Part shown: positions 37,487-61,702 of the stretch, piece by piece
Numbering within the stretch: the first letter of the stretch is position 1
Layout of the letters: each line of letters begins with the position of its first letter
NCBI GenBank assembly: GCA_963796125.1
Contig: CAWCKM010000052.1
Coordinates: forward strand, 238 to 64,237
Direction of reading: 5' to 3'
DNA length: 64,000 nucleotides
Origin: Nitrospirota bacterium
GTDB lineage: Bacteria; Nitrospirota; Thermodesulfovibrionia; Thermodesulfovibrionales; SM23-35
Position numbers and translations under genes: made by a program
Notes under the pieces: model-generated
What the model saw: the letters and a program-made list of their open reading frames with translations, nothing else
What the model was told of the DNA's origin: nothing
The model's database searches: none

Positions 37487-38936
37487 CTACAGAGAGGGAC
37501 AGATAGCAATCTGATCACGCCCTTTTTCCTTGGCAGAGAAAAGGGCGTCATCAGCAAATGTGATGAGGTTGTCAGGATTTTTGATCCTTATATCGGAACT
37601 GCAGGCTATTCCTATACTCACCGTAATTTTCTCACCGTCTTTGAGGGCATAGAACTTATGTTTCCGTATGATTTTACTTAACCGTTCTGCTTCTGCACAA
37701 GAACCCGACAGGGATGTCTGGGGCAGAAGCATGATAAACTCTTCGCCACCATATCGTGCAAAGACATCAGATTTTCTGGTATGTTCCCTCACGAGTTGTG
37801 CAAATTCCCTCAGGATTACGTCTCCTGCTCTATGACCATAGGTATCATTTATTTTTTTAAAGTTATCAATGTCGAACATCATACAGCACAAAGGCATCCT
37901 GTGCCTTTCAGCCCTGCTGAATTCCTCATCAAGCCTGTTGTAAAAGTATCGCACATTATAAATTCCTGTCAGGTAATCAGTTATAGCAAGCCGTTCGAGA
38001 TCGCTCCTTTCTTTTGCAAGGTTTTCATAGAGGAAGGCATTATAGAGTGCATTGGCAGACGCATTGGCAATAGCAGTACAAAGCTTTTTTTCTCTTTCTG
38101 AAAAGGTTCGATCTGCTTTTGCGATGTTCAGTAATAATGTCCCGATAACTTCATCATGAAAGGTTATCGGTATCACCATAATCGAACGAATGCCCATAGG
38201 TTCTAAGATTTCTCTTTACTTCTTTCATCATGGGGTCTTTCAGTGCATCTTTGACCAATATGGATTTCTTCAGTGCTAATGCCTTTCGTATCTCCGGGTA
38301 TTTCTGCAGGTCTATCTTCAGGTTTGTAATGTTCGGGTCTTCAAAGGTCGATACAACGGTTGCGTATCTCTTATTTTTGGTATCAGTACTGATCATAGAG
38401 CATCTCGTAACATGGATTATCTCGGATAATTTCTTGACCACAAGATAAAGTGCCTTTTGCGGGTCAAGGGTTGATGTAATAAAGTGGGTAAGTTCGATAA
38501 GTGTCTCAAGATCCTTACGTTTTTTATGGAGGGTCCCTAACCAACTCTTTTTTCTGATCGCAGATCTCAGTCTCTCCTCAAGATCTTCCTTATTGAAGGG
38601 GCCAAGAAGATAATACTCCAACCCTGATTTGACCAAAGAACGGATTCCTTTAACAGCATTGCCAGGTTCTATCAAGGCTATTATAGGAAATTCAACCTCA
38701 GAGGGTTTTATATATTCGAGGACATTGGTGTTGCTGATGATAAGGGCGTCAGGTTTTTTCTTTTCGAGTTCTCTGCGGAGGGTCTCTATGTTTTTATTTA
38801 TAATAAAATGTGCTGTATAATCGTTTCTTTTTCTAAAAAAAGACTTCAGGAATTTCAGAATATCTCTTTCATTTTCATAGATGGATATTGTTTTTTTCAT
38901 CCTGTTTTCCTTTGCAATTATCACAAATTTTCTCAT
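37487..38936 (-). pseudogene. Diguanylate cyclase with a receiver-like domain, GAF and GGDEF (intact GGEEF and RxxD I-site). One frameshift near 38180.
   Basis: Pieces 38154-38936 (REC-like plus GAF start) and 37487-38197 (GAF end, YLTGIYNVRYF, RKSDVFARYGGEEFIMLLP). Confidence 0.8.
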
Positions 38937-39103
38937 ATTTGTCCAATAGTTTTTATATTTGCATGAGTGACTCTCTTTCTGTAACGGGAATCACTATGAC
39001 CTCTTAAGGCTCCTGCACATAGCATAAATTTTTAAAAACATCTTGATTTTCGATTTACTATAAAAGTAAATTACTAATGACTTCATAAGTAATGTCTCAT
39101 GAT

Positions 39104-39214
39104 TGTCATTCCCGCTTGTCGGGTCACCTCAGCGACTCGCCGGGGCGAGAATCTTTCCGAGAGAAGAAGGGTTCTGGATTCATCCGCCTGAGGCGGACAA
39201 GAGCCAGAATGACA
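39104..39214. repeat. MITE-like 111-bp element with 8-bp terminal inverted repeats TGTCATTC/GAATGACA.
   Basis: A GC-rich insert in AT-rich intergenic DNA. Internal hairpins are CTCGCCGGGGCGAG and CCGCCTGAGGCGG. ORF 39092-39295 is its spurious translation. Confidence 0.65.
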
Positions 39215-39330
39215 CAATGGCTGACTAATTACGGTTTTCTAACGAACTTGTTAGTAGTTTGTCAAAGGCAAATGATGGCAGGCAGTGATGCATAACTATT
39301 CAACGATACTATTAAACGGAGGAAGAAACG

Positions 39331-39564
39331 ATGGAAGACATGGATCGGTATAATGAGATGAGCAAACACATAGGGAGTGTGGAAACCTTTTTTGATGTAT
39401 TTCATGTTATAGCACAACACGGTTTATTGGGAGAGCTGAAGAACACCTCGGTAATCTATCTTCTTACGGAAGTGAGCGAGAAACTGGAAACGATCAAGAG
39501 GCTGCATAAAGAAACGTATGACAGATTACAGGGACTTAAAAGACAGACTGGTGTAGCGGGCTAA
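39331..39564 (+). CDS. Small hypothetical protein (77 aa).
   Basis: ORF with GGAGGAAGAAACG upstream of the ATG. No recognisable family. Confidence 0.4.
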   Translation: MEDMDRYNEMSKHIGSVETFFDVFHVIAQHGLLGELKNTSVIYLLTEVSEKLETIKRLHKETYDRLQGLKRQTGVAG

Positions 39565-39636
39565 GCATATGAATACGTTAACCTTAATTTAATGAAAGGC
39601 CCTCAGGTTCCAGGGGCATATCATTAAAAAGTCTGC

Positions 39637-41206
39637 ATGTCCCTCCCTCAATTAATTGATATCGGGTTTTTGTCTGCTCTTCGGGATTCCCTTTCAGTCA
39701 TAACTGATTTGTCCTTTTCACTGTATGATGGAGCGGGTATGTTATTGATGCTGCCTGAAGGTGAAGACAAATTGACGGCTTACATGAGATCGTATAGCCA
39801 GGGCAGAGAGGAACTTGAGGAATTTATTCTTCATGGTATTGAAAAGGCGGCCATGAGAAAGGATTCCTTTCTGTTTAAAGGTCCTGTCAATGAGCACCGT
39901 CTATTTATTTCTGCTGGCATCGAAAACTTTAAAATCGTCTTTGTCAGCAATCCATTCTATTCGACGAGAGCAGAATTCGAGGAATTTTTAATCAAAAACG
40001 GGAAACATTTTGGTCTTTCTCCTGCGAACTTTGAAGCATGGATAGAGGCAGTCAAGATAAAGGATTGTTCAACGGTTCAGAACATGGCAGCACATATAAA
40101 ACCCATACTTGAAATTTTTTTGCAGCGCAGCTATAAGAAGAATTTGAACCATAAGAGTTACAGATGGTCTAAGACTTTAACAGATGTGGCGTTCAGCACT
40201 CAATTGCCAAAAACTGCAGAAGAGGTTTACGTATTGGTTCTTGATGCGATCATGTTTCTCTTCAATGTTGATACCGTTTCTGTAATGATTAAGGACGGGA
40301 ATCTCTTCAGGGTTTTTCTGTCCACAGGAAGGTTAAGGAATGACGTGAAAGCTCTCTGTGTTGAAGATCGTAACCAGATGATTTCTAAAGCCATTGAGGA
40401 CCGCATGCCTGTATATACAGATGATGTTACAGAAATCCTGAGGCTTGGTTTTCCAGAGAAAATGACATCAGTACATATTTACCCGCTTTTGCACGGCAGT
40501 ACTACTTACGGTGTAGTCGTCATATACAATTCCATTCTTTCAGCGGAAGAGTCCTGCAGCATTATGGAGTTCTGCAAGCTTATGTCCCTTGTACTTAAAA
40601 ACGTCTCTCTTCAAAGCGATTACGATCGGTGTTCTACCGGTATAGGCCGGTTGCAGATGACGACAACACAACTTATTCATCAATTTCACAACCTTAAAGA
40701 GATTTCTGTTACTGATCCTCTGACAGGACTTTTCGGCAGGCAATACTTTCAGGAGCGTTTCATAGAGGAAATTCACCGCTCAGAGCGTTATGACATTTTC
40801 TTTTCTTTTGCGGTCGTAGATATCGATAATTTTAAGCTTATTCAATGACTCAGAAGGACACCTAAAAGGAGATAATATTTTGAGGGAGATTGCAAAAATA
40901 ACGCATGGGTCTATAAGGGGGTATGACATCCTGTCCAGATTTGGAGGAAGAGAATTCGGCATTCTCATGCCACAGACAGCAAGCGAAGAGGCATTTATGG
41001 TTGCAGAGAGGATAAGAAAAAACATTAAAGCATTCCTTATGAAACGATGGACAGCATTTCCCCTTCCCGGCATAACAGTGAGCATCGGTATTTCATCTTT
41101 TCCTTATAACGGGAAAAGTTTCGATGAGCTTATAGAGCGTGCTGATGTAGCTCTCTGTAAAGCAAAGTCTATGGGTAAAGACAGAACCGTTATTTACAGC
41201 GATTAA
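39637..41206 (+). pseudogene. GGDEF-domain protein with a sensory N-terminus (PocR-like?) and GAF. The active site is degenerate (GGREF) but RxxD is retained. One frameshift near 40845.
   Basis: Pieces 39637-40848 (...DPLTGLFGRQYF...AVVDIDNFK) and 40880-41206 (RGYDILSRFGGREFGILMP). The GGREF codons are at 40943-40957. Confidence 0.75.
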
Positions 41207-41255: not shown

Positions 41256-42278
41256 TTAAAGTAACTTAATCTTATTATCAATTATCAAAGTTACGATTTC
41301 GGGGTCGAACTGCGTACCGGATCCCTTTTTGAGTTCATCGATAAGCTGGCTGTAAGAAAGGGCCTTTCTATAAGGTCTGTCGCGCATCATTGCATCTACA
41401 GTATCTGCGATTGCAACAATTCTCGCCGTGAGTGGTATCTTGTCCCCTTTAAGCCCTTCTGGATATCCTGTACCGTCAAATCTCTCATGATGATAGAGGA
41501 TCACTTCGACTGTATCTTCAAGGAAAGGCACTGCGTTAACAATCCTGGCACCAATGTTTGGGTGTTTCCTCATCTCGATATGTTCATCTCTGGTAAGTAA
41601 ACTATCTTTTCTTAAGAGCTGCTCACTTATTCCTATCTTTCCTATATCATGCATGATGGCCGCATGCTGGAGTTTCTCTTTCGTAAGCTTTGGAAATCCC
41701 ACTCCTTCTGCTATTATTGATGATAATTTTGCAACATGTTCGGAGTGGTCAAACGTATAATGGTCCTTTGCATCTATTGCGTAAATGAGTGCTTTTATTG
41801 TCCCGTCATAATAGAGCATCAGATTCTGTCTTACAGACTCGATCTCCTGTGTAAGGTATTCTTTAGTGAGTAAAAGATCTTCATGCTCCAATTTTTTTGT
41901 GCTTAGGTCGCGCTTTTTCTGAAGTCCGCGTTCGATTACATTTATCACATCATCCTTATCAAAAGGCTTCGTAAGATAATCGAAGGCACCGAGACGCAAT
42001 GCACTACGTGCCGAGTCAAGACTGGCATACGCAGTTAGAAGTATAACCTGTGTGTCAGGATATCTTTTTTTAATCTCCCTCAGTACCGTTATTCCATCCA
42101 TATCCGGCATTCTTAGATCAAGAACCACCAGATCCATGGGATTTTGGGCCATGAGATCAAGCCCCTCTCTTCCGCCGGTGGCTGTAAAAACAGTATATCT
42201 GCCTTTTAAGACCTGCTGAATAGAATATCTCGGCATTAATTCATCATCTATAATGAGAATTTTTTCTTCGTTATTCAT
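41256..42278 (-). CDS. Response regulator with an HD-GYP c-di-GMP phosphodiesterase domain (RpfG-like).
   Basis: REC domain (ILIIDDE...VVLDLRMPDMDG...KP), then HD (HSEHVAKL...MHDIGK) and HHERFDGTGYP. Confidence 0.9.
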   Translation of the reverse strand: MNNEEKILIIDDELMPRYSIQQVLKGRYTVFTATGGREGLDLMAQNPMDLVVLDLRMPDMDGITVLREIKKRYPDTQVILLTAYASLDSARSALRLGAFDYLTKPFDKDDVINVIERGLQKKRDLSTKKLEHEDLLLTKEYLTQEIESVRQNLMLYYDGTIKALIYAIDAKDHYTFDHSEHVAKLSSIIAEGVGFPKLTKEKLQHAAIMHDIGKIGISEQLLRKDSLLTRDEHIEMRKHPNIGARIVNAVPFLEDTVEVILYHHERFDGTGYPEGLKGDKIPLTARIVAIADTVDAMMRDRPYRKALSYSQLIDELKKGSGTQFDPEIVTLIIDNKIKLL

Positions 42279-45200
42279 TTTCTATTGGAACCACAGTTTT
42301 TGATACATCAACAACGGGAAGGTTAATGATAAAGCTGTTACTCCCGTTGTCACTTTTTATGATGAGGCTTCCGTTATGCCCCTCAATAATCTTATGGCTG
42401 ATGGGGACATTCAGCTCAGTCCCAAGGTTATCAATATCCAGAAGCGGTTTAAACAGGTCATCTTTTTCTTTATCCGTAAACTCTTTCCCAGTATATTTTA
42501 TTACTATCTCCACATAAGGACTGCTATCCGGCAATACCGCGCTGAGTGTGACAAAAGCGCCTCCGGGTGTCCTTTCAACAGCGCTGGAGACAAGATAATA
42601 GATAGCCTTAGTAAGGATTTTTTTGTCAGCGTTAACAAGTACAGATTTATCCAGGTTTTGTTTTAAAAAACTATGTGCCGAGGGTATGTTCTTCAATATA
42701 TATTCCGCAGATTCATCAATAATAAGATTCACGTCTTCTTTTTTAAGGTCATACTCGGACTTACCCGAAAAAATTATGAGTTTATCAATAAGACTGTCAA
42801 TCTTATGGATTGATTGAAAAACCACTGTTGCATAAAAATTATTCAGTTCCTCATCCTTATATTTCTCATTCATTAACTGCGTATAAGTATAAATTGACGT
42901 CATAGGGTTTCTTATCTCATTGGCAAGCTTTGCCATAAGATCATTAACGGCCAGAAGCTTTTCCGTGCTTCTCTTCTGTTCCTCAAGTCTCCTGGAATCA
43001 GACAGATCGGTAAAGACAATTCCTGCGCCGATAGGGGTCCGGTTTTCATCGAGCAACCTGTAACTGTTTACCCCGATAGGCAGTTTTTCCTGGAGGATCT
43101 CTGTCTCATGACGTTTATACATGGTGCCTGTAACCATAGTCTCAAACAGTATGTCTCCCAACGGAGAAGGTATTTTCCTTAAATCGTAACCCAACATCTC
43201 TGAGGGATTTAGATTAAGAATTTCAGATGCCCGCTGGTTAAAAACAGTGATCCTTTCATCTTTATCAATGACAATAACACCGCTGGGCATACTGGAAAGG
43301 ATATTCTTTGTAAATCCCTTCTGGTAGAGCATCTGATGATATAAATCTATATCCTTTACTGCTGCAGCGAGGTAATTGCAAAGCACATAGATGATCTCAA
43401 GCTCCTCCTTGTAAAATGGCTCTTCCGTGATCTTGTTGTCTATGTTAAAGATGCCTATCAGTCTTCCTTTATATGTCATGGGGAATGAAAATGCGCACTC
43501 CAGAAGTTCCATCTCTGACTTTATATTTAAGGAGGCTGTGTCAGCAGGATTGTTCGGTTTGCGCTTTATCCTGCCTGTCTTTGCAAGCCATGTCACAAGT
43601 GCACTGTCTTTTTTTAATCTGAGATTCTCAGCAATGTATGGGTCAAGCCCATAGTGGGTTTTAACATAAAATCCTTCTTTATCCCTGAGCATGACCGACA
43701 TCTTACTTACACGGCTAATGTCCATTACAGAATCCATAAAGTGATTAAAAAGCCTTCTCATGTCAAAACTTACAGTAAGCACCTTTGCAAAATTGATCAG
43801 TACCTGTAAGTATCTCCCGGACAGAAACGACTCGAGACCTGCCGGTCCATAAAATGAACTCACCGGGGTCTGCAGATTGTATGTGCTATGTATTTGGGTA
43901 TCGTCTTTTGATTTTTCAAGCAGGTTTGTCACATTTTTAAGCCTTTGCTTATCAAGGGCATGCGTAACCATTTTAGGAAGTTCTGTATGTACAGACTGAG
44001 TCTCTACATAACCAAAAACAGCCGGGGGCAAATTCTCAATGGTAAACTCGTCAAGTTTCTCCGGTGTAATAAGTATAACCGCATTATGGTCGAGTTTACT
44101 TAATAACTTCTCTAAAGCAGACAGCTTATATGAGACGGTGTCTATTAGAAGCAAATTAATCAGGAAATTGGCATTCAGATCCTCAAACTCCTCTAACGTC
44201 TTGAGGGGGTATATGGTATGCCTCTTAAGGGCTAATTTTACATCAGGAATAATTGCTTCATCTCTGTTACTAAGTAGAGCTAAGATTTCCACTTTCATTC
44301 CCATTTTCTTAATAGGCAGTGTTATTTTAAAAGTTGTTCCTTTTTTAAGTATGCTGTCAACCACTATTTTACCATAGTGGTCTTCGATAATCTTTTTAGT
44401 TATGGCGAGACCAAGACCTGCTCCTATTGTTTTTGTCGAGAAAAAAGGTTCAAAAATTCTGGTGACATCTTCTGAGGATATCCCGTCCCCATTGTCTGCA
44501 ATTGATATGTCAACATTCTCTTTGTTTTGAATAATACCAACCCTTAAAGTTCCATCATTACGATTAACAGGAATAGACTGACAACCATTCATTATTATAT
44601 TAGTGAATGCCTGTCTCAGCTTCTTTTCGTCTCCCAACACATTTATGTTGATGTTTCCATAATCCTTTTCAATAGTGATTTTCTTATTATTCAAGTTTGA
44701 GGTTTGCTCCTGGTTTCATCAATAATCCAGTCCATGAACTTGCCTATATTTAGAGTGCTCATTTCTGCAGGAGTCCTTCCTGAAGAAAAATCCAAGAAGG
44801 TCTTTAATAAGACCATCTATGCGGTTTGCACTATCTACAACAATCTTTGAGAAATTTTCCCTGAAATCTGTATCAGAGTATCTTTCAGGCAGCAACTGGG
44901 CAAATGTCTTTATGGAAGTAAGGGGATTTTTTATCTCATGTGCAAAGGTGGCAGACATCATGCCTATTGATGCAAGTCGGTCTGAGGTTAGTTTATCCAT
45001 ATAGAGTTTGGCATTCTTAATGGCAATTGCCGTCTGGTCAGAGATCAGTGTGGAGCAGTTTGATGTCTTCAGAAGTAAAGATATCTCCTGATATCTTCTC
45101 GCTGAGAACCATCAAGAGTTCTAAATTGTTATCAACAAATACGGGGACTACTGCTTCACCTTCAAAAGGTTTAAGATCGGTATTAACTTTATCTACTACT

Positions 45201-46381
45201 TCCTGGTTGATCTTATGAATCTGCGGCAGCTCCTCTCTGATGACAACATCATATGTTTTAAGGAGTTTGACTATCTCTGAGTTACCGTCTATTGCCATCT
45301 CACTTTCCTGCATTTTGTTTTCAGTAATGTTTGTTCTGACTTCAGGGTCTTTTTCTATATTTACTGTTTCTTTATCTCTTTGCACACTATCTTTTTCATG
45401 TGATGTGGAATATACCATTACAACTACATACTTCCCTCCGGGCACAAGAGAGAGAAAATAAATATTTTTTAAACCAAGAGCTGACAAAATTATGTCCCCG
45501 ATGAAACTATATATCCTCCCAAGACTAAAAGATGAAGCAAGCTCATGACTTACTTTCTGAATAGTAGAGTAATAATCATATGTCTTTTTATAAAATGTTT
45601 TGTCAATAATTGTCTGGATTCTGTTTCTGAGAGGATTAAAAAGAAGTGCAATCAAAAGGGCAGCGATAGCTGTTATAGTAGATGAAGTAATACCAGCCAG
45701 ATGCGATAAATATTTAGTTATTGCAAGCACTACCATGACAAAAGAGCCGACTAAAAGTCCAACAGAAAGAGAATAAACTGCAGTTTTTTTGAATACAATA
45801 TTTATGTCCATGAGACGATAGCGAAGGATGGCATAAGTAGCGATAAGACAATATATTGGAATAGTAAAATTGCCGAAAGGATAAAAATTGAAACCAAGAT
45901 ATGGAAAAAATTAGATAATCCACCGGAGAATCCCAGGATTATAGCTATAAGGAAATATAAAATTTGAAGTTTTTTAATTCCCTTAGATATTAAGTAACTT
46001 TTGATTAGTTGATAAACTCCATAAGTTATTAGTCCTAACCATATAAAAAAAGAAATCACACCAATAGGACTTTTGGTATAAGCATAATGGAGTGTATTAA
46101 AGAGCAAATAAGTATTTGAGATGTAGGGTAGGTTAGTCGCTAAAATACTTAGTATACTGGATAAGATCCTTGGCACATAGGCAAAAATTAAATATTTTAT
46201 ATGAAGAAAGATTACACAATTCATATATCACGTGGAAGAAAAATATACCAATAAATAAAATGGGGGGATAATCTGATCTTCCAAAGTATTTAATGCCTGC
46301 TGGTACTATCTGTAAGCTTGTCCTATGAAAAACGCTATCCAACCCCAAAAATAGCTTACTGCAATATTGAAAAACATCCAC
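42271..46381 (-). pseudogene. Giant membrane sensor kinase: multi-TM N-terminus, GAF, HisKA, HATPase, REC-like, GAF, PAS, then a second, degenerate HisKA/HATPase-like module. Several frameshifts in the 5' third.
   Basis: Pieces: 45802-46381 (TM helices); 45038-45811 (TM plus GAF); 44719-45000 (FAHEIKNPLTSI H-box); 42271-44694 (starts inside HATPase: DNGDGIS, GAGLGLAI; later LANEIRNPMTSI with Asn in place of His). 8-nt overlap with the HD-GYP gene. Confidence 0.75.
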
Positions 46382-46548
46382 AGCAAATGTAATCTGGATT
46401 TCTTAGTTTTTAATAAAATAATAATTACTAAGGTAGTGCATGTTACTCCTAACGACAATCCACCGAGTGAATATATACTGGCTGTGGTCTATTACTTTCT
46501 TTAACTTGTTTTTATACTTTTCTAAAGAACAATTTTTAAACATGGTTA

Positions 46549-49396
46549 TCAAATTGTCTGATTTATTCCATTTTTAGCTGATACTTTAAAATATCTAAGC
46601 AATAGGTTAGCTACGTTTCTACCCCAAATAAAGCAACCAGGGGAATTCCACTCTGTCCTATCCCATTTGTCACCCACCAATGGCCCGATAAATATAAACC
46701 CTTTATGCTCGTTTGGCTGGGAATAGTTAATATTCTGGAATCGTACTTGATTCACTGCAGATGCCCATCCAAGAGAAGCACCTTCCAATTTGAAGTGATA
46801 TTTGTGAAGTGTGCTGGGAGTAACAGTTTGTTTCCCTTTATCTTCATTGATTTCTGAATATTCCGGAATTATTTCATTATAGTTTCGAAAATAATCTTTT
46901 TATATAAATATTCTTTGTAATCTTCTTGTAATCTTATTTGTGGATATGACCCAAACCATTGCTCTCACTACACTTTTATCTTTAGGAGCAAGTTGTCATC
47001 AACGAGAGAGGGAAATGGCAAATAAGATATCTACATTAAAACCATTTCTGTTCTCTGTGGTCATATCTTTCGAGATTATAATATCTGTCTGTATCAAAAC
47101 ATCTCTCCAGATCATATGTAGAAAATAACCATGTAGAAAAATGTTTATCCATTAATTTTTCTAAATTATTATTCAGTCCTAAATATACTATAAATGCGGA
47201 GGGAGATATTGCTAACTGTTCCACTTTCTTTTTTTCTATGCATTCTGAAGATATTAATTCTTTAAAAGTAGTAGTGGCATCAGCATTTGAAACCACAAAT
47301 CCAGTTTGAATAATTTTTCCTTCATTCAATTCTATGCCAGTAACTCTTTCGTTTTTAACTATAATTCTCTTTACCTTGTTAGATAATAATAATCCCCCTC
47401 CATATTCTGTAAACTTTGATGCTAATAAATCAGGAAAATTTTGAATACCTCCTTGTGGGTAATATCCACCATCTAAAATATATTCTCTGTATAAGAAAAT
47501 TGAAGATAACGCAGAAGCTTTTGAAGGAGAGATCCCTAAATTACCAATGGGAATTGATAAAATTGTTTTTAATTTATAGTCTTGAAAGAATGCATTTAAG
47601 AATTCATTAAAAGTTAAACTCTTGGTTTTAGAAACCAAGGATAAAAGATCTTCTGTAAGAATAAAATCAAAGAATCTTTTTATACTTTGCTCTTCTTTAG
47701 GAAAGTGATTTATTAGTTCTTGTTTGGTTTTTTCCTTATCTTGTCTTATTAGGATAATTTCATTTGGTGTGATGATTCTTTCACAAGGATCATTTCTTAG
47801 AAAGTTTTATCTTATTAAGAAGTGAAAGATCTTGTAGTATGTTATAAATTACTCCGTCCCTTTCTCTACAGGATCCCAAATAATGTACCCCTACATCAAA
47901 AGTATATCCTCCCCTTTCGAAGGAAGTACAATAACCTCCCGGCTTATAATGTTGCTCTACTATTAAAACTTTTAAGCCTGCTTTAGCAAGATAACAACCA
48001 CAAACTAATCCGCCGATTCCTGCACCAATAATGACTACATCATATTTGTCTTCTTTATGGTTTTTAAAATCTGTATAATTTGGTTTGCAATCATATTTTT
48101 TAAATATTGCTGCCGCATTATATCCTGCAAATCCACAGGATAATTTCATGGCAGTATCAAGGGGATAAGGGATTAGTTCCTTCACTAATTCGATGTTGTA
48201 CTTTGGTTCAGTTTCATCATAATTCAAAGTCGGTGGAATTAAATTATTTTCCATGGAAAGTAAGAGAATGATGATTTCTAAAATAGCGCTGCCTCCTAAG
48301 TTATGACCGACATATGGCTTAAATGCCGTTATTAAAGGTTTTTTATGATTTTTACCAAAAATATCAGTAATTGCTTTTGCTTCATAACCATCCGTAACTT
48401 TAATTGCTACTCCGTGAGGATTAATTAAATCGATGTCGTCTGGTTTTAAGTTAGATTTTCTAAGAGAAGATTCTAATGTTCTTTGGATAAGTTAAGCTCC
48501 CTATTCTTGGCATAGTAACTTTCCAGCCTTCAAGAGAGAATCCCCCACCTAAATATTCAGCATAAATGTGAGCTTTTCTATCTAAGGCATGACTCAGTTC
48601 TTCTAAAACTATTGCTGAAGCTCCATCGCCAAGAACAATGCCATCAGCTTTTTTAGAGAAAGGCTTCATTTTTCCATCTTCTGCGTAAAGCCCCTGTTCC
48701 TTAAACCATAAATGTTTAAACATAGTATTGGCTACATCTCCAGAGGCAAGCAAAACAACGCTACTTTCACCATATTTAATTTGTCTTGCAGCGGATTCTA
48801 GAGGCAAACAGACCTGATGCACAGGCATTGTTTGTAAATAAAGAGTATCCATGAAGCCCGAATGCTTTAGCAACAAAATACAAATACATAAAAGTCTGAA
48901 GATCATAACCATTCTGAGCGAACTGTTCATATATATGTCTAAAAAGTTTATACTTGGAAAATTTATTATTTAAAGGATATTCTTCTATATATTGAATGGT
49001 CCCATAAATAAGCCCTTCACAAAACACTTCAAATCCCGGATGTTCAACTGTCAAGAACAACCCAATATTGTTGTCCTCTTTATCGTAAGAAAGTCCGCTG
49101 TCATCTAAAGCTAATTTTATAGACGCTAATAAATAGAAAAGGTCTTTATCTTCATTCCCTTTTTTCCATATTTTGATGTCTTCAATTATCTCCTCTTCAA
49201 TGTTAAATTTTTCAATACCAAAACTATCTATTTTATGCAGATAAAATTTATCCCATACTTCCCCATCAATATTTATTTCCTCTAATTTTAAACCAATTCT
49301 TTTTTTTAAAATCCCTTCCCAGAAAACATCTTTACCGATTCCCGTTGAGGCTAAAGGACCTATTCCTGTTACTACTACTCTTTTTTCACCTGCCAT
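46549..49396 (-). pseudogene. Beta-ketoacyl synthase (C-H-H triad intact) fused in frame to a CrtI/phytoene-desaturase-like FAD oxidoreductase. Heavily frameshifted.
   Basis: KS: MAGEKRVVVTGIG, TNNACASG, NPHGVAIKVTD, PYVGHNLGGSA, IPPTLNY...SCGFAGYNAAAIFKKY. A 17-aa linker follows, then DVVIIGAGIGGLVCGCYLAKAGLKVLIVEQHYKPGG. The middle (47036-47638) and C-terminal (46549-46788) oxidoreductase pieces are in other frames. Confidence 0.7.
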
Positions 49397-49428
49397 AATA
49401 TGAAATTGCACCAAATATTTTTAACATC

Positions 49429-50643
49429 TTAATTAAACTTACTGATTACCAAACAGGAGTTATTTCCTCCGAAGGCGAAACCATTATTTAAGGCAATATC
49501 TCACTCTCTTTATTTTTGCTCTATTAGGAACACAATCTATGTCACATTCTGGATCGGGAGTCTCAAAATTTATAGTTGGAGGAACTATATCTTCTTTAAC
49601 TACAAGACAGCAGGCTAATGCCTCGATAGCAGATGCAGCTCCCATGGTATGACCGAGCATTGATTTTATTGAACTTACAGGAATTGTTTTATATCGTTCT
49701 TTAAAAACATTTTTAATTGCGGCACACTCAGTTTTATCATTGCCTTGTGTACCGGTCCCATGAGCATTTATATAATCTACTTCTTCTTGTCTGAATAGTC
49801 TGCTTCTTTTAAGGCTTTTCGTATTACTTTCTCGATACCATCTACGTGAGAGGCAGTCATATGAAAAGCATCACAACTAATGCCATAGCCTAATATCTCT
49901 GCATAGATATTTGCTTTTCTTTTTAAAGCAGATTCTAATGATTCAAGAAATAGGATCCCTGCTCCTTCACCAACAAGCATTCCCTTTCTATTTTTGTCAA
50001 AGGGCTGACATTTCTCAGGAGCCATTGCATAGAGACGATGAAAGCCACTGAATGCAAGTTTAGAGAATGAATCAGCACCTCCTACAATAGCATAATCTAT
50101 ATCTCCTTTTCTTATTAGATCAAATCCATAACCTATGGCATAGTTACCAGCAGCACAGGCTGTAGGAATAAGATAATTTGGTCCCTGAAGTTTAAAATAA
50201 TTAGCAATATTAGCAGGCAAGTTATTCGCCGAAGACTGCAATATTTTTATTTTGCTTATCTTATCAACTCCTTCTTTAATCCAGGCTTCAATAGATTCCT
50301 CCAATGGTCTCTCACCCATAGTTGTTCCAATAAAAACACCGATTCTTTCTTTATCGTTATTTATCAGTGATAACCTGGAATCCTTTAAAGCCAGAGATGC
50401 AGCAGCAATAGCCATTTGAGATGTGCGGCCCAAAAATTTAAGTTTTCTCTTTGAAATAAACTCTTCAGGGTTAAAGTTTTTTATTTCACCACCATAATGA
50501 CATCTGAATTCCTTAGTATCGAATGAAGAAACCCTGCTTATCCCTGATTTGCCATTTATTATGGCTTTCCAGAAGTCATCCTTGCCAATCCCTACAGATG
50601 AAACTACTCCTAAACCTGTTACTACTATTCTTCTTTTATTCAT
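49429..50643 (-). pseudogene. Beta-ketoacyl-ACP synthase (FabF-like, catalytic). Two frameshifts near the 3' end.
   Basis: RIVVTGLGVVSSVG and PTACAAGNYAIG (Cys). AHGTGTQGND and SMLGHTMGAASA appear in the shifted frame downstream of 49800. Ends ...GGNNSCLVISKFN*. Confidence 0.8.
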
Positions 50644-51077
50644 TCTTTTTAATCCCTAAAACAAAATTGGCTTTAGCCACAATCCTATCGCCAACTCTCG
50701 CTAAAGCATCAATCACTGCTGCTTCATCTATAATCTTTACATTATTTGTCTCTAAAATAAGTTTATCACCTGGGAATACCGGCGATAAAAACTCTGCCTT
50801 GACCTTGCCTAAATAATAATTTGGATGTGTTTTAGCTATCTCTGGCTTACAAATGTAATAAAGAATTATAGAAGCCTGTGCCATTGCCTCTATTATCAAA
50901 ACGCCCGGCATTATTGGTCTGCCGGGAAAATGTCCCTCAAAAAAAAATTCATTATCTTTGATATTTTTAGACAGCTATGACTTTCTTAGTGCCATCAATC
51001 TCAATTACTTCATCAATAAAAAGAAATGGCTCCCGATGTGGCAAGATAGTTTCAATTTTTTCTCTATCCCAGTGCAT
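50636..51077 (-). pseudogene. FabZ-like 3-hydroxyacyl-ACP dehydratase (hot-dog fold). One frameshift near 50960.
   Basis: MHWDREKIETILPHREPFLFIDEV, then FFFEGHFPGRPIMPGVLIIEAMAQ (catalytic His and Glu). Confidence 0.8.
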
Positions 51078-51322
51078 GTTAAGGCTTTTTCAGGGTGTCT
51101 TGTATATTCAATTATCTGTCTAAGATTCCTGATATTTGGGATATCCTTTTCGGGTATAATAATCCTGTATTTCTTCTCAAAAGCAGCTACTATCTCGATT
51201 GCCTTTAATGAATCTATCCCTAAATCTTTAAAAAAGTCTGCATCAGGCGTAAGTTTTTCAACAGGTACCTCAATAATCTCTGAAACTAATTTCTTTACTT
51301 CTTCTTCATAGTTATTTTTCAT
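51005..51322 (-). CDS. Acyl carrier protein. The true stop is probably near 51085 and the rest of the ORF overlaps fabZ.
   Basis: DFFKDLGIDSLKAIEIV contains the phosphopantetheine-attachment DSL motif. Confidence 0.8.
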   Translation of the reverse strand: MKNNYEEEVKKLVSEIIEVPVEKLTPDADFFKDLGIDSLKAIEIVAAFEKKYRIIIPEKDIPNIRNLRQIIEYTRHPEKALTCTGIEKKLKLSCHIGSHFFLLMK

Positions 51323-51336
51323 ATGCCCCCTTTTGT

Positions 51337-52568
51337 TTAATGATATTTTGATATAACCAGTGAAGCATTGCTTCCACCAGGACCGAAATTATTAATTAAT
51401 ACATTATTTATTCTTGCCATCCGTGATTTATTAGCCACATAATCAAGGTCACAGTCATCATCTTTTACTCTATAGTTAATCGTTGGTGGTATAAAACCAT
51501 TAACTATGGTGCCTATAGAAGCAGCAATCTGGAGCAGACCACCAGCACTAAAAGGCTCTCCTATCATTGATTTAATAGAGCTCACAGGAATATTGTAAGC
51601 AGATCTGCCAAAAACATCCTTTATTGCCTTTGTCTCTAATCTGTCCTGTTCAGGAACAGAATTTGCTGAAGCACTTATATAATCAATATCTGTAATCCTT
51701 AATCCGGAATCTCTAATTGCTTTCTTCATGCTTTCTCTTAATCCATTTGCTTCCGGATTATATTTACCCATCTTATAGGCATCAAAACAATTACCTGTAC
51801 CTTTAACCTCAGCATAAATATTTGCCTTTCTTCTTTTAGCATATTCCTCATCCTCTATCACTATAACCGCTGCTCCTTCACCTAATATGATTCCATTTCT
51901 TCTTTTATCAAAAGGGCAGGATAATTCTTCACCTTTTATGCCGGCAAGAAAACCTAACCTGTAAAATCCAGTAAAATTTGCAAGAGAAAGACTCTCCACT
52001 GCTCCTACCAGAACTGCCTTAATTCGTCCCGATTTGATAAAATCTACGGCGTATTTCAATGCGTCTATGCTTGAACTATAACCGGTAGAAACAGTCGTAT
52101 TAAATCCCTGAATATTGAACCGGATTGAAACCTGGCTTGAAGCAGCATTTACTACTGTTCCGGGGAAAAGGGCAGCATCGGTGAAAAGAGGTCCTTCCTT
52201 TATTGCTTCTTTTCAAATTCAGCAAAATTCCAGAGAGAAGATAAAGTAGTTCCTGTGCAGACACCTATGTCATCCGTATTTTTATAATTAATGGTTAATT
52301 TTGCATCCTCTATTGCTAATTTTGCAGCAGAACACAGTAGCCTTGTAGTTCTATCAAGATTCTTTAAGCCCTTAGAGCCTAAAAAAACAGAGGGATTGAA
52401 ATTGTTAATCTCACCTGCTAATTTACACTTAAACCCGTTTGTATCAAATCGGCTAATCGGCTTAATCCCGGACTGACCCTCCTTCAAAGCTGTCCAGAAT
52501 TGTTCTTTCCCTATACCATTTGGAGCAATTACTCCTATGCCCGTTATTACTATTCTTTTTTTATTCAT
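51337..52568 (-). pseudogene. KS-like protein lacking the catalytic triad (chain-length-factor-like partner). One frameshift near 52200.
   Basis: KS fold (RIVITGIGVIAPNG...) but VSTGYSSS (Cys to Tyr, codon 52078-52080), ISASANSVPEQD (first His lost) and KSMIGEPFSAGG (second His to Glu). Confidence 0.75.
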
Positions 52569-52585
52569 TTACCTCATGAGATAAT

Positions 52586-53338
52586 TTAAACCATAGCACT
52601 ACTTATTCCACCATCTATAACTATTGTCTGACCTGTAATATAGTTTGCTTCATCGCTTACTAAAAATTTCACCACTTTTGCCACTTCTTCCGGCCTGCCT
52701 AACCTGCCTAATGGTATCTGTTTTATTATCTGACTTTTATAGTCTTCTCTTAAATCTTTAAGCATATCTGTCTCAATAAAACCGGGGGCAACCGCATTAA
52801 CCCTGATATTATAGGATGCAACTTCTTTAGCAAGAGATTTGGTAAACCCGATTATCCCTGCTTTAGAGGCAGCATAATTGGTCTGTCGAGACATACCCAT
52901 GATTCCGCTTACTGAGGTAATATTTACAATAACGCCACTTTTCTGTTTGATGAAGGTTATGATCGCGGCTCTGGTAAGATTGAATGTTCCATCTAAATTA
53001 GTATGTATTACTTCATGCCAATCAGTAAGTTCCATAAGAGCAAGTGCTTTATCTTTAATAATACCGGCATTATTTACTACGATATCTATGCCACCAAAAA
53101 GTTCTTTAGTCTTATCTACCCATAATTTCACAGCTTCATAGTCTCTGATATCCACCTGAAATGATTTAACGTTGACATTCAAATTTTTTATTTCTTTTTC
53201 CAGATCCTCTGCATCTTTTTTACTTCTTAAAAAATTAAAACTAATATTCGCTCCTTCCCTGGCTAATTCAAGGGCAACAGCATACCCTATCCCCCTTGTG
53301 GCGCCGCTAATAATAACCGTCTTATTCTTAAACGGCAT
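52586..53338 (-). CDS. FabG-like 3-oxoacyl-ACP reductase (SDR).
   Basis: MPFKNKTVIISGATRGIGYAV, VNNAGI and YAASKAGIIGFTKSLA (YxxxK). The ATG at 53338 is preferred over the ORF start at 53428. Confidence 0.85.
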   Translation of the reverse strand: MPFKNKTVIISGATRGIGYAVALELAREGANISFNFLRSKKDAEDLEKEIKNLNVNVKSFQVDIRDYEAVKLWVDKTKELFGGIDIVVNNAGIIKDKALALMELTDWHEVIHTNLDGTFNLTRAAIITFIKQKSGVIVNITSVSGIMGMSRQTNYAASKAGIIGFTKSLAKEVASYNIRVNAVAPGFIETDMLKDLREDYKSQIIKQIPLGRLGRPEEVAKVVKFLVSDEANYITGQTIVIDGGISSAMV

Positions 53339-58164: not shown

Positions 58165-59411
58165 AATTTGACATTACTCCCTATCTTCAGGTATTCCGCA
58201 GCAGACGTGTTGCTGTCATAACATTTCTTGGCTTTTCCTCAGGACTCCCTTTAGCTTTGACAGGTGGTACCTTGCAGGCATGGATGGCAGTAGTCGGAGT
58301 TGACCTGCAAACCATAGGAATTTTTTCATTGGTCGGCATTCCCTATGCAATAAAATTTCTCTGGTCCCCCTTGATGGATCGTTACGTCCCTCCGTGGTTT
58401 GGAAGACGCCGGGGATGGATCCTCATTACTCAGGTAATGCTCATGTTTGGTATTGCAGCAATGGCTTTTTATTCTCCCCTGCATGTTCCCTGGGTGTTAG
58501 CTATCCTTGCTCTTTTTGTGGCTTTTACTTCTGCCTCACAGGATATCGTGATTGATGCATACCGGACAGATGTCCTGAAAGAAAGGGAGCGTGGAGCAGG
58601 GGCTGCTGTTTTTGTCATGGGTTATCGTATTGCAACGCTTGTCTCTGGTGCACTGGCACTTATTCTATCCGATCATATCGGCTGGCAGAACACATATTTA
58701 TTCATGGCGGCTGTCATGTTGATCGGCATTATTTCGACACTTGTGGGGCCAGAGCCGGAAGAAAAGGTCGCTCCTCCTCTCAGTCTTCAAGAGGCAGTTG
58801 CAGGTCCGCTGAAGGAGTATTTTTCAAGGAATACAGCCATCCCTTTACTCTTTTTAATAGTGCTCTACAAGTTAGGGGATGCCTATGCAGGTGTTTTAAC
58901 AACAGCCTTTCTTATAAAGGGTATCGGGTTTTCAGCAAGCGATGTAGGGACGATAAACAAGGGATTTGGCTTTGTCTCGGTGATTATAGGTGCTATGCTT
59001 GGTGGTTCGTTGATGGTGCGGCTCGGCCTGTTTCGTTCTTTGCTGGGTTTTGGCATATTGCAGGCAGTGTCCAATCTTTCATTTATGCTTCTTGCATGGA
59101 TAGGAAAAAGTTACGGGATGCTGGTTTTTGCAGTTGGTTTTGAAAATTTCAGTGGCGGCATGGGTACAGCAGCCTTTGTTTCACTTCTTATGGCAATGTG
59201 CAATCACCGTTATACAGCAACGCAATATGCACTGTTGTCCTCTCTCGCAGCCCTCGGACGTATATTTATCGGCCCCACCTCTGGCTTTCTGGTTGAGTCA
59301 GTAGGCTGGGCAAGTTTCTTTTTCATTACGGCCTTAACGGCTTTGCCTGGACTGGTGCTTTTGTGGCGGCTTCGTCAGGAGGTGACAGGTCTGGGGGATA
59401 ATAGGCAATAA
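58119..59411 (+). CDS. ampG: AmpG-family muropeptide MFS permease.
   Basis: FLGFSSGLPLALTGGTLQAWM...YAIKFLWSPLMDRY...GRRRGWIL. Polytopic. The exact start is uncertain because the ORF overlaps the end of nagZ. Confidence 0.85.
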   Translation: MFTRRNGFSRGGSLLKFDITPYLQVFRSRRVAVITFLGFSSGLPLALTGGTLQAWMAVVGVDLQTIGIFSLVGIPYAIKFLWSPLMDRYVPPWFGRRRGWILITQVMLMFGIAAMAFYSPLHVPWVLAILALFVAFTSASQDIVIDAYRTDVLKERERGAGAAVFVMGYRIATLVSGALALILSDHIGWQNTYLFMAAVMLIGIISTLVGPEPEEKVAPPLSLQEAVAGPLKEYFSRNTAIPLLFLIVLYKLGDAYAGVLTTAFLIKGIGFSASDVGTINKGFGFVSVIIGAMLGGSLMVRLGLFRSLLGFGILQAVSNLSFMLLAWIGKSYGMLVFAVGFENFSGGMGTAAFVSLLMAMCNHRYTATQYALLSSLAALGRIFIGPTSGFLVESVGWASFFFITALTALPGLVLLWRLRQEVTGLGDNRQ

Positions 59412-59490
59412 ACACTATGTCATTCTAACTGGTGCATAAAATTCTTATCCACCAATCGTCATTGTGGGCAATATAGAGAAAGAACTGGAT

Positions 59491-59733
59491 TCATGATGCC
59501 TTTTCAAGGCGCTCCGCGACCCAGACTTTGATAATTGATTGTCGAGGCACACCTAAGCGTTTTGCTTCTTTATCCAATAAGTGAATCATCCATAAAGGAA
59601 AATCCACATTTATTCTTTTTTGTTCCTGTTTAAGTCTTCGAGCTTTCTTTACATTAAGGTGCCTGGAAATATCCTCGCCTTCATCAAATCTCTTGTCAAA
59701 TTCTTTAGCTTTCATAGATATCAACCTCCTCAT
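59491..59733 (-). CDS. brnA: BrnA-family antitoxin (RHH).
   Basis: KEFDKRFDEGEDIS...KRINVDFPLWMIHLLDKEAKRLGVPRQSIIKVWVAERL. The likely start is the internal ATG at 59715. Confidence 0.8.
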   Translation of the reverse strand: MRRLISMKAKEFDKRFDEGEDISRHLNVKKARRLKQEQKRINVDFPLWMIHLLDKEAKRLGVPRQSIIKVWVAERLEKAS

Positions 59734-59965
59734 TCCGTGAACGTCGTACGGAAATAATCCTTATCTTCTCACCTCTATACGTAATAACCCCTGACCAATG
59801 TTTCCCTGAAATCTTCCCGATTACCAAGTATCTCGGTTCATCGCTGGTTTTCACAGGGATCTCGATTAAATCAGGATCATCCCACAGCGCCTGGGCTTCG
59901 TAGAAGTCAATCCCATGTTTTTTCTTGTTGCTGTCGCTTTTTGGGGAGTCAAACTCAAATTCCAT
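59705..59965 (-). CDS. brnT: BrnT-family ribonuclease toxin.
   Basis: FEFDSPKSDSNKKKHGIDFYEAQALWDD...IRIISVRRSRNEE matches the BrnT pattern. Overlaps brnA. Confidence 0.85.
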   Translation of the reverse strand: MEFEFDSPKSDSNKKKHGIDFYEAQALWDDPDLIEIPVKTSDEPRYLVIGKISGKHWSGVITYRGEKIRIISVRRSRNEEVDIYES

Positions 59966-60262
59966 AGTATATTAATTATACCTTATTTATACCTAATTGC
60001 AATCAGACATTTTTTGATTCTAATGCCCGAACTATGCGGGCTATTAGCCGCCAGCTGGGGTGATTGTTAGCTGCGGTTACGAGTGTATTTCCTTTTTAAA
60101 TGGTAGCTTATACCTTATTTCTCGCTGATTGGATACAGTTTACATAATTTACCTATTTTTACCATTTATACGCAGGCTGAAGAAATGCTGACGAGTGCTA
60201 TCAAAAATGATAGTATAACCTATGGGCAGACCTAAGAAATTGTTTGCGAAGGTTAAGAATAA

Positions 60263-60610
60263 TATTACTATCCAATAAAAGTATTTTACAGCGAAGAAGA
60301 TAAGGGTTTTATTGCTGTTATTCCTGATCTGCCTGGGTGCTCAGCCTTTGGAGAAACCGAGGAAGAGGCATTGAGAGAGGTGAAGATAGCTCAGGAATTA
60401 TGGATAAAGACCGCAAAGAAAGAAGGAAGAAAAATTCCGCGGCCTTCATCAGAAAATATATACAGCGGTAAGATACTCGCAAGGACGCCGAAATCACTTC
60501 ATAAGGCGCTTATGGAAAAGGCAAAACAAGAAGGCGTAAGCCTTAACCAGCTTGTAGTCTATATATTGTCAAGGGGATTGGAAAAGCGTGCAAATCCGAT
60601 AAAGCCCTGA
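60263..60610 (+). CDS. hicB: HicB-family antitoxin. The 5' end is unresolved, and no hicA was recognised in the neighbouring ORFs or intergenic sequence.
   Basis: YSEEDKGFIAVIPDLPGCSAFGETEEEALREVKIAQELW, plus a C-terminal RHH-like SLHKALMEKAKQEGVSLNQLVVYIL. No canonical start in frame. An ATG at 60222 lies in another frame. Confidence 0.75.
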   Translation, partial: YYYPIKVFYSEEDKGFIAVIPDLPGCSAFGETEEEALREVKIAQELWIKTAKKEGRKIPRPSSENIYSGKILARTPKSLHKALMEKAKQEGVSLNQLVVYILSRGLEKRANPIKP

Positions 60611-60818
60611 ATCGTTGAAGCTGACAAATTTCCCATATTATACCAACCCCGTTTTTTGTCCATATTACCACAAAATACGGGATAAGGCTATTTTAAACGG
60701 TTTGATTTTATTGCTTTTTTAATTTTCAAGGCATACGGATTGTGCTATATTTACATCATGAATCTGAAAAATAGAGGGGCTGTATAATTATTGTTGGGCC
60801 GAAAATAGGGGCAAATAA

Positions 60819-61411
60819 ATGAAGAAAATATTGAAGATTAGCGGCATATTTCTCTTTGGCGTCCTTGCCGGCGCGATCCTAATGAATCTCCTTTATATGT
60901 TTATGTGCGGCCTACTTATCGCCACATGATACGAACGGAAATAAAAACGGATCAGCAATTCTTGGCAAGCCGCGCAACTCGTGAGGGCAATAAACTCGAA
61001 GCCGCTATGCACAGGTGGTTTGTTTTAGAAATGGATTCGGAAAAAAGCCGTCATGAAAAAAGCGATAAAAAAGCGGATTCTTCATTCCTATTCCTTTTTT
61101 ATATGACTTCCCTGAGAATGATGGAAGACTCAAATACAAAACAAGGAACAAAAGATTACCGAAATGTTGTCGAAGGTATGGAGCGCGCATGGTTAGCCGC
61201 TGCTCTCGAAGACATTAATGAAAAGCAAGAGGCATCAAAACAATGGGTTAAAGCCCAAACATTGTTAGGGGAAAGCTCAGTCGAAAATACGCAGAAGCTC
61301 ATTCATAATATACTGGAAAAGGAAAAGACCGCTACATACATTGAGGGCGAGAAGATGATTTTGGGAGACACAAACCAGGCCCAACAAAAAAATCGAGGCG
61401 ACAGGGAATAA
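60819..61411 (+). CDS. Hypothetical membrane-anchored protein, probably one gene with a frameshift near 60905.
   Basis: MKKILKISGIFLFGVLAGAILMNLLYMF (signal/TM) runs into ORF 60905-61411 in another frame. No family recognised. Confidence 0.45.
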
Positions 61412-61678: not shown

Positions 61679-61702
61679 AGACCATTATAAAAGGGGAGAA
61701 AG

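Follow-up and report, generated by a model that had tools for sequence, protein, structure and literature searches.

The 64,000-nucleotide stretch of Nitrospirota DNA that we analysed (hereafter the window; contig CAWCKM010000052.1, positions 238 to 64,237) carries, on its minus strand between 53338 and 46549, seven co-directional and tightly packed genes that resemble those of type II fatty acid synthase (FAS) and polyketide synthase (PKS) systems. We propose, with a probability of about 0.55, that this cluster encodes a specialised type II FAS/PKS-like lipid pathway that is intact in nature and that is damaged in this copy mainly by assembly errors. The locus is a real, conserved and uncharacterised lipid-building pathway of the "ladderane-like/APE-like" type II class (APE, aryl polyene), and its subfamily is defined by a third ketosynthase (KS) family and by an operonic module comprising a seven-transmembrane (7TM) kinase and an HD-GYP regulator. 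Judged by sequence, its closest studied relative is Cluster I of anammox bacteria.

Gene content of the cluster

Open reading frames (ORFs) and Pfam matches give the gene order as FabG, a non-catalytic KS (KSx), an acyl carrier protein (ACP), a FabZ-type dehydratase, KS404, KS435 and a CrtI-family flavoprotein, the corresponding Pfam matches being adh_short/KR, ketoacyl-synt without the catalytic triad, PP-binding, FabA/FabZ, two more ketoacyl-synt domains with Cys-His-His, and NAD_binding_8/Amino_oxidase. Since homologue matches reach down to E = 1e-250, chance is excluded. The conserved unit runs on downstream to 41256 with a 7TM histidine kinase, a second kinase and an HD-GYP response regulator:

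52586..53338, minus strand: FabG-type 3-oxoacyl-ACP reductase, 250 amino acids (aa), intact (Pfam adh_short_C2, 2e-68, and KR)
51337..52568, minus strand: KSx, non-catalytic FabF-like partner resembling a chain-length factor (CLF), 410 aa after one 1-nucleotide (nt) repair near 52210
51005..51322, minus strand: dedicated ACP with a DSL motif, 105 aa for the ORF as read (Pfam PP-binding, 4e-15)
50636..51077, minus strand: amxFabZ-type 3-hydroxyacyl-ACP dehydratase, 146 aa once a single base near 50970 is repaired
[quoted passage not shown]
48087..49396, minus strand: KS435, the third KS, with 1-nt insertions at 48801 and 48485 and its stop lost through a 1-nt deletion at about 48087
46549..48118, minus strand: CrtI/amine-oxidase-family flavoprotein, phytoene dehydrogenase (PDH)-like, with about 26 insertions or deletions (indels), most of them at 47053-46629
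44314..46479, minus strand: 7TM sensor histidine kinase (HisKA_7TM-HisKA-HATPase), heavily frameshifted in this copy
42271..44292, minus strand: second histidine kinase, cytoplasmic, GAF-PAS-HisKA-HATPase (Pfam), intact
41256..42278, minus strand: response regulator with HD-GYP output, a predicted c-di-GMP phosphodiesterase (Pfam Response_reg and HD_5/HD), intact

A preliminary description made from the letters alone had recognised this tight, co-directional gene content, which the Pfam and homologue matches bear out, but it had counted six genes where there are actually seven, KS435 and the flavoprotein being separate. It was right that the cluster lacks an enoyl reductase, an acyltransferase and a thioesterase, none of which was detected by Pfam in the cluster or its annotated flanks, and that the usual APE accessory set is missing, as neither the cluster nor its flanks nor the conserved block of the relatives contains any of those genes. 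Rfam and tRNA scans of the window gave no matches.

KS404 and KSx resemble the anammox amxFabF2/amxFabFmut pair

In searches against PDB sequences, KS404 scored 497 bits (56% identity) against amxFabF2 (9s5h_B), compared with 351 bits (45%) against ApeO (6kxd) and 331 bits (41%) against Bacillus subtilis FabF. The best match of KSx was amxFabFmut (9s5h_C; 385 bits, 47% identity), catalytic KSs reaching at most 273 bits, and ApeC was not among its best 60 PDB matches, all of at least 132 bits. From its sequences and molecule names we judge entry 9s5h to be the amxFabF2/amxFabFmut heterodimer of Brocadia fulgida, the accession itself not being found in the text of the preprint that describes these proteins as a heterodimer that decarboxylates malonyl-ACP and prefers C6-C8 chains (bioRxiv 10.64898/2026.05.19.726425). 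The pairing of a KS with a non-catalytic partner, suggested by the preliminary description, thus has experimental backing in the closest solved homologues.

Signature residues agree with these scores. The Cys/His/His triad is replaced by Tyr/Ser/Glu in KSx and by V/N/E in B. fulgida amxFabFmut, so that KSx retains the Glu at the second His position; the amxFabFmut tunnel residues Phe135, Thr138 and Val139 are kept in KSx within the motif F-P-G-T-V, and further conserved tunnel residues are F203, M337 and the gate Phe. None of the three KSs reaches the cut-off of 493.75 of the NCBIfam FabF model TIGR03150, the scores being 439 for KS404, 365 for KSx and 202 for KS435. In a neighbour-joining tree, KSx and amxFabFmut fell into one clade of non-catalytic KSs (bootstrap 83/100), and KS404, amxFabF2 and ApeO into another (87/100).

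KSx has metagenomic homologues of 78-94% identity, and a search with it against 1.84 billion representative proteins found about 40 clusters of stand-alone non-catalytic FabF-like proteins, nearly all of which have Glu at the second His position. The anammox KS/CLF pair is thus part of a broad family of which the present locus is one branch. The database also holds many KS-CLF fusions of about 820 aa that join an amxFabF2-like catalytic KS to a KSx-like domain (P0241, P0242, P0247-P0252 and others).

The dehydratase has the blocked tunnel of amxFabZ

The five best PDB matches of the dehydratase are all anammox amxFabZ structures (including 7qv0_A, 8ayb, 8ayi and 8ayc) at 121-126 bits, while canonical FabZ structures do not exceed 104 bits. 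It reads AQASIIL where E. coli has AQATGIL, meaning that an Ile replaces the canonical tunnel Gly at amxFabZ position 69, a substitution previously described for amxFabZ (PMC10139942). Position 69 is bulky (I/V/C/M) in all 16 aligned members of the dehydratase family, and position 115 of the present protein is Ile, hydrophobic as in amxFabZ. Among NCBIfam models, the dehydratase passes NF000582 (138 vs 113) and fails TIGR01750 (136.6 vs 155.15).

FabG scored 306.9 against TIGR01830, above the cut-off of 297.75, and shares 52-80% identity with the gene that opens the block in the relatives. The ACP homologues are 76-80 aa long, and the true end of the present ACP is probably near 51083 (about 80 aa), if a run of five A residues at about 51088 should be a run of four.

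KS435 and the flavoprotein are two separate proteins

The preliminary description had read KS435 and the CrtI-like oxidoreductase as one fused protein with a built-in desaturase. This fusion is an indel artefact, as revealed by a metagenome contig of the Joint Genome Institute (L001) that shares 95.5% DNA identity with the window over 3.9 kb. At the end of KS435, L001 reads TAT GAT TGA and the window reads TAT GAT TGC, one A being missing at about 48087; the apparent read-through arises because this 1-nt deletion removes the KS435 stop codon. In L001 the flavoprotein (P0043, 516 aa, 98% identical) begins 32 nt upstream of the KS stop in another frame, and all relatives have a KS of 433-441 aa and a separate flavoprotein of 470-516 aa. 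On the basis of this base-level comparison and of the gene lengths in all relatives, we rejected the fusion.

KS435 has an intact triad (Cys192, His327 and His364) and keeps the conserved Lys and gate Phe. Its N-terminal half is longer and divergent, unlike any solved KS, and its best match among solved KSs reaches only about 150 bits, while hundreds of close metagenomic homologues exist. Against PDB 7f27, which may be ApeR, it scored 121 bits, no closer than to FabF. KS435 is a member of an uncharacterised KS family.

The flavoprotein is closer to Kuste3607 of anammox Cluster I (34% identity, 217 bits) than to Kuste3336 (153 bits) or to Pantoea CrtI (115 bits). We rejected a carotenoid gene set and a CrtI phytoene desaturase, as the flavoprotein scored 165 against crtI_fam (TIGR02734; cut-off 238), remained far below the cut-offs of all carotenoid equivalog models and has no crtB or crtE gene nearby. 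The anammox phytoene-dehydrogenase homologues have themselves been reported to fail to complement crtI (PMC4790861). Because three Nitrospirota clusters that are complete in all else (L003, L008 and L009) lack the gene, we consider the flavoprotein to be accessory.

The block recurs in uncultured bacteria together with a 7TM kinase

A profile scan for KS435 across 185,579 species genomes found 27 loci, all in uncultured metagenome-assembled genomes (MAGs) or single-amplified genomes (SAGs) of Nitrospirota/Thermodesulfovibrionia, Omnitrophota, two "Planctomycetia" and one unclassified bacterium; no anammox genome was among the hits. A tblastn matrix and Pfam-annotated contigs showed a recurring block of FabG-KSx-ACP-dehydratase-KS404-KS435-(flavoprotein)-7TM histidine kinase, followed in the Nitrospirota loci by a GAF/PAS kinase and then an HD-GYP response regulator. 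The block is kept in about 25 uncultured species-level genomes (Nitrospirota, Omnitrophota and "Planctomycetia" MAGs) and in metagenome contigs. The cluster is therefore not the orphan that it was first taken for, and it belongs to the "ladderane" class that antiSMASH calls in non-anammox phyla.

Of the 24 loci with enough flanking sequence, about 22 have the 7TM kinase gene immediately after the cluster, and in locus L004 this gene shares 4 nt with the flavoprotein gene. Intact orthologous blocks include those of L003 (JBFONE010000161.1), L004 (Ga0452216_000227) and L033 (JACRHB010000067.1). The L004 orthologue has Pfam matches to HisKA_7TM, HisKA and HATPase_c, and tblastn of this protein against the window covered its residues 2-681 in three frames. 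The second kinase of the window, conserved in the Nitrospirota loci, is 47% identical to its L004 orthologue over 648 residues, and the HD-GYP regulator (motif HHERFDGTGYP) shares 56-59% identity with its orthologues at the end of the Nitrospirota blocks. For this class, so strict a link with a 7TM histidine kinase and an HD-GYP regulator is a novelty, and it suggests that the lipid product is sensed; a literature search on "HisKA_7TM" and on ladderane-type clusters in Nitrospirota found no functional information. In the window, two GGDEF genes (37487-41206) adjoin the HD-GYP regulator, forming a local c-di-GMP neighbourhood that is not kept in the relatives.

Some relatives depart from the full block. 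A minimal module of ACP, KS435, flavoprotein and 7TM kinase, without KSx, KS404, dehydratase or FabG, is present in L023 (9743-14872) and L032 (9749-14860), and in an Omnitrophota SAG (L006, 7087-14884) a KS404-like gene, KS435 and the flavoprotein gene directly follow plsX-fabH-fabD. Two Omnitrophota loci (L024, 11302-12545; L025, 11368-12616) have an FMN-reductase-like gene and a 223-aa gene of unknown type between KS435 and the 7TM kinase, and the products of these genes could be electron-transfer partners of the flavoprotein. Others contain nucleotidyltransferase or toxin-antitoxin-like inserts in or after the cluster (L013, 3840-4554; L020, 11376-12819; L021, 7173-9104; L028, 11363-12620), and in L013 the KSx-dehydratase-KS404 set is duplicated. 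We had considered whether the gaps in the relatives' clusters held missing pathway enzymes; they actually hold these toxin-antitoxin/nucleotidyltransferase or FMN-reductase-like genes.

Frameshifts: assembly error or decay

The window copy contains about 35 frameshifts in a zone (44690-52210) that reaches into the 7TM kinase gene. Guided by homologues, we repaired the genes with 1-nt changes only (one each in KSx and the dehydratase, two in KS404, two in KS435 in addition to its lost stop, and possibly one in the 3' A-run of the ACP gene), and the repaired lengths of 410, 146, 404 and 435 aa are exactly those of the homologues, with no internal stop and with all conserved residues restored. 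Compared with L001, the window has 50 indels, with insertions and deletions in a 38:12 ratio; 46 of the 50 are packed into 1.35 kb (the flavoprotein gene and the start of the next gene), only 19 are of the homopolymer type, and several patches carry 4-6 single-base indels per 20-30 nt. No nonsense codon was found in about 1200 aligned codons. Genes are also split elsewhere in the window, including a HisKA_2/HATPase kinase (12421-13177), rsmH/mraW of the dcw operon (32368-33244), a GAF-GGDEF gene (37487-38936) and a second GGDEF gene (39637-41206), which points to an assembly-wide indel problem. Lastly, an independent AT-rich contig whose name is in the style of a long-read assembler (L002) is frameshifted in different genes, namely FabG, KSx and KS404. 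Because of the excess of insertions, the clustering of indels, the lack of nonsense codons, the split genes elsewhere and the L002 pattern, the frameshifts look mostly like assembly errors in a locus that is intact in nature.

The alternative that survives best, already raised in the preliminary description, is that the locus is a genuinely decaying remnant, with frameshifts that arose by mutation and an AT-richness due to relaxed selection. The indel density in the low-GC region at 44.7-52.2 kb is 15-300 times higher than in the rest of the window, and the frameshift zone coincides with the zone of lowest GC. Moreover, the ratio of nonsynonymous to synonymous differences from L001 is about 1.6:1, looser than strong purifying selection predicts, although a dN/dS-style count against L001 is indecisive, the divergence being too low and mixed with errors. 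The 7TM kinase gene of L001, the closest relative, also has an in-frame TAA at codon 168 (L001 positions 3259-3261) where the window has AAA; this could be a real inactivation, a strain variant or an error, and because of it some real decay in the AT-rich lineage is possible. Bacterial pseudogenes, however, usually show a deletion bias, the opposite of the 3:1 excess of insertions found here. Dense runs of single-base indels are typical of an unpolished long-read consensus, a housekeeping gene such as rsmH is split as well, and AT-richness is common to intact relatives (34.9% GC in L007, 32% in L001). Together with the clean repairs and the lack of nonsense codons, this leaves real decay with about one chance in four. 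The window copy is of little direct use before its sequence is polished.

Base composition gives little support to a foreign origin

The preliminary description had estimated a GC content of 30-33% against about 42% around the cluster and had suggested a horizontal origin. The drop itself was confirmed, the measured value being slightly above the estimate: 46549-53338 has 34.8% GC, its genes ranging from 31.6% to 37.3%, and the remainder of the 40-45% GC part of the window has 42.6%. As an argument for horizontal origin it is weak, since the cluster is only 0-5 points below its flanks in 15 related loci, a comparison that gives no support to a general foreign-island signature, and since the low-GC boundary in the window falls within the conserved block, between the two kinases. 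The clusters of the closest relatives are all AT-rich at 32-36% GC (L001 32%, L002 36%, L007 35%). Transfer or recombinational replacement from a lower-GC relative is possible.

A proposed pathway and its alternatives

In the pathway that we infer from gene content, homology, signature residues, synteny and the lack of a radical SAM gene, KS404 and the inactive KSx would form a KS/chain-length-factor heterodimer, by homology to the anammox pair, which may prime itself by decarboxylating malonyl-ACP and elongate the chain on the dedicated ACP. FabG would reduce the beta-keto group in each round, and the amxFabZ-type dehydratase, its acyl tunnel blocked by Ile, would then dehydrate. The predicted product is a short-to-medium (about C6-C12) unsaturated and possibly conjugated acyl-ACP, unsaturation being expected because the cluster has no dedicated enoyl reductase, as in the aryl-polyene and ishigamide systems. 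The CrtI-family flavoprotein may be an optional tailoring enzyme for desaturation, saturation or isomerisation, and KS435 may add a further condensation, as a hand-off or an extension, following a logic like that of ApeR beside ApeO-ApeC. The 7TM kinase, the second kinase and the HD-GYP regulator would link the pathway with c-di-GMP turnover and with membrane or lipid sensing; these genes point to such a coupling rather than to transcriptional control of the cluster.

Beyond the indel density, the substitution ratio and the kinase stop codon described above, several observations weigh against this proposal. One tunnel residue differs, Ala110 of amxFabF2 being Met in KS404, and a sister relation of KS404 to amxFabF2 that leaves out ApeO received a bootstrap of just 32/100. 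The similarity of the ACP cannot tell amxACP from ordinary ACPs, with Aquifex ACP at 55.9 bits and amxACP (7qv0_D, the second match) at 55.0 bits being equal matches in the PDB. Housekeeping FabI or FabK may reduce the enoyl intermediates and so give a saturated product. The role given to the kinase was deduced from gene order, and the subfamily and anammox Cluster I are alike uncharacterised in product and activity.

A more specific version, by analogy with signalling by diffusible signal factor (DSF), would see in the cluster a sister of the anammox cluster without radical SAM chemistry that serves as a lipid signal circuit: the self-priming KS/CLF pair, FabG and the dehydratase would build a short conjugated polyenoyl chain, the flavoprotein and KS435 would finish it, this product would be the ligand of the 7TM kinase, and the kinase would drive the HD-GYP regulator to lower c-di-GMP in a DSF-like manner in these uncultured Nitrospirota and Omnitrophota. 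We regard this version as unlikely. If it were true, expressing the genes would show the product that the shared KS/CLF-FabZ-ACP-PDH set makes before any radical SAM chemistry, that is, the stage of the linear ladderane precursor.

The cluster might instead be an auxiliary branch of housekeeping fatty-acid synthesis that uses FabI/FabK and FabD and that supplies a short acyl-ACP such as octanoyl-ACP or adjusts membrane chains. It would be in keeping with this that FabG passes the FabG equivalog cut-off and the dehydratase one FabZ cut-off, that the L006 genes directly follow plsX-fabH-fabD, and that the homologous anammox enzymes prefer C6-C8. Yet plain short-chain synthesis would have no need of an inactive partner, a flavoprotein, a third KS or a sensor kinase, and the Nitrospirota blocks are found in varied genomic contexts, away from fab genes. 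With all three KSs also below the FabF equivalog cut-off, which makes a canonical type II FAS unlikely, we consider this explanation improbable.

More improbable still is a reduced aryl-polyene or flexirubin-type pigment cluster. KS404 does group with ApeO in the joint clade described above, homologous dehydratases carry precomputed ApeP-like/ApeI-like Pfam matches, a KS/CLF pair with a third KS mirrors ApeO-ApeC and ApeR (PMC8358021), and the short-chain dehydrogenase model for FlxB matches FabG, but below its cut-off. Nevertheless, no aryl-starter or adenylating enzyme (ApeH), thioesterase (ApeK), methyl-, acyl- or glycosyltransferase, or LolA/MMPL gene was found in the cluster, its flanks or the relatives' block, a LolA gene lying upstream of the block in L004 only. 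There is a single dehydratase and a single ACP instead of two each, KSx prefers amxFabFmut with ApeC outside its best 60 matches, and KS435 is no closer to 7f27, the possible ApeR, than to FabF. We rejected an aryl-polyene cluster because genes for starter activation, a thioesterase, anchoring and export are all absent and the CLF is of the amxFabFmut type. Membership of the cispentacin (AmcF/AmcB/AmcE) or flexirubin (FlxB) systems was rejected too, because the NCBIfam matches are weak and sub-threshold and no specific model fits.

Finally, that the host bacteria make ladderanes with this cluster is highly improbable: although, out of the six proteins of anammox Cluster I, four to five have homologues here, tblastn at E <= 1e-3 gave no match to the B12 radical SAM enzymes Kuste3608 and Kuste2803, neither in the window nor in 33 related loci with 10 kb of flanking DNA on each side, the literature knows ladderanes solely from anammox Planctomycetota, and the profile scan found KS435 in no anammox genome.

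Other features of the window

Positions 1-6700 have a GC content of 70-74% with long ORFs in six frames and only a weak Pfam match to SNF2, and the composition shifts abruptly to about 50% and then 40-45% at about 6.7 kb. This segment looks like a chimeric join or foreign DNA, which puts the integrity of the contig in doubt. A non-homologous end-joining locus at 7716-12068 encodes LigD (phosphoesterase and ligase), a separate LigD primase-polymerase and two Ku proteins from tandem genes. A toxin-antitoxin island at 59400-63500 includes a BrnT/BrnA-like pair (59491-59965), HicB (60371-60610) and a CopG-type antitoxin (63127-63405), and a deoxyhypusine-synthase-like protein is also encoded in the window.

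Comparison with known systems

The signalling genes recall the DSF system of Xanthomonas (RpfF, RpfC and RpfG), as an analogy only, in that unsaturated fatty-acid-type synthesis is combined with a membrane sensor kinase and an HD-GYP regulator. The present locus differs in having no RpfF-type crotonase and in the 7TM input domain of its sensor, which is unlike RpfC.

The ishigamide enzymes Iga11/Iga12, with the ketoreductase Iga13 and the dehydratase Iga16, likewise use an iterative KS/CLF without an enoyl reductase and yield a conjugated polyenoyl-ACP, but they belong to actinobacterial secondary-metabolite clusters with amide-forming tailoring; we compared them by description. The anammox preprint also draws this comparison and names the ishigamide KS as the nearest structural neighbour of amxFabF2, citing 6kxe (bioRxiv 10.64898/2026.05.19.726425). 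In our PDB sequence search, 6kxe groups with ApeO of A. baumannii (6kxd).

With aryl-polyene clusters, the present one shares a KS/CLF pair, an extra KS, a ketoreductase and a dehydratase without an enoyl reductase, as well as the well-supported clade of KS404 and ApeO. It differs from them by lacking an aryl starter, a thioesterase, lipid anchoring and export, by having one dehydratase and one ACP, and by a CLF that falls into the amxFabFmut clade.

Members of the same wide and uncharacterised class are the "ladderane" clusters that antiSMASH calls in Omnitrophota, Desulfobacterota and other non-anammox phyla (bioRxiv 10.1101/2022.12.20.521206) and the related clusters observed in Desulfotalea and Geobacter by Rattray et al. 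2009, which are also FAS-like and, although not from anammox bacteria, combine phytoene-desaturase-like genes with divergent paralogues of FabF. Those of Desulfotalea carry radical SAM enzymes, a phenylacetyl-CoA ligase and a glycosyltransferase, whereas the present subfamily carries KS435 and the 7TM kinase.

The closest comparison is with anammox Cluster I (KustE3603-3608 in Kuenenia), which consists of amxACP, amxFabZ, amxFabF2, amxFabFmut, a phytoene-dehydrogenase homologue and a B12 radical SAM enzyme. This cluster is commonly presumed to produce ladderanes and has been described as exclusive to ladderane producers (PMC10139942). Both clusters combine a catalytic KS with an inactive FabF partner (56% and 47% identity, the same Glu and the same F135/T138/V139), and both have a FabZ in which a bulky Ile replaces the tunnel Gly, a dedicated ACP, the common order ACP-FabZ-KS and an adjoining CrtI-family flavoprotein that is closest to Kuste3607 in our case and whose gene some Nitrospirota loci lack. 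The present block differs in having no B12 radical SAM enzyme and a FabG of its own, in adding a third catalytic KS (KS435) that the profile scan did not find in anammox genomes, in its co-operonic 7TM kinase, second kinase and HD-GYP regulator, and in its hosts, which are Nitrospirota and Omnitrophota, not Brocadiales. As the radical SAM enzyme is missing, we rejected a ladderane cluster in the full sense, and the exclusivity proposed for Cluster I (PMC10139942) is true only for the full set including that enzyme.

Altogether, other phyla have, without a radical SAM enzyme, a wider module that comprises the KS/CLF pair, the FabZ with its blocked tunnel, the ACP and a related flavoprotein. How ladderanes are made is an old question: anammox bacteria are not genetically accessible, and the pathway has yet to be reconstituted in vitro. 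The approximately 25 intact relatives of the present cluster offer a natural "minus-cyclase" comparison to Cluster I and possibly more tractable genes for heterologous expression.

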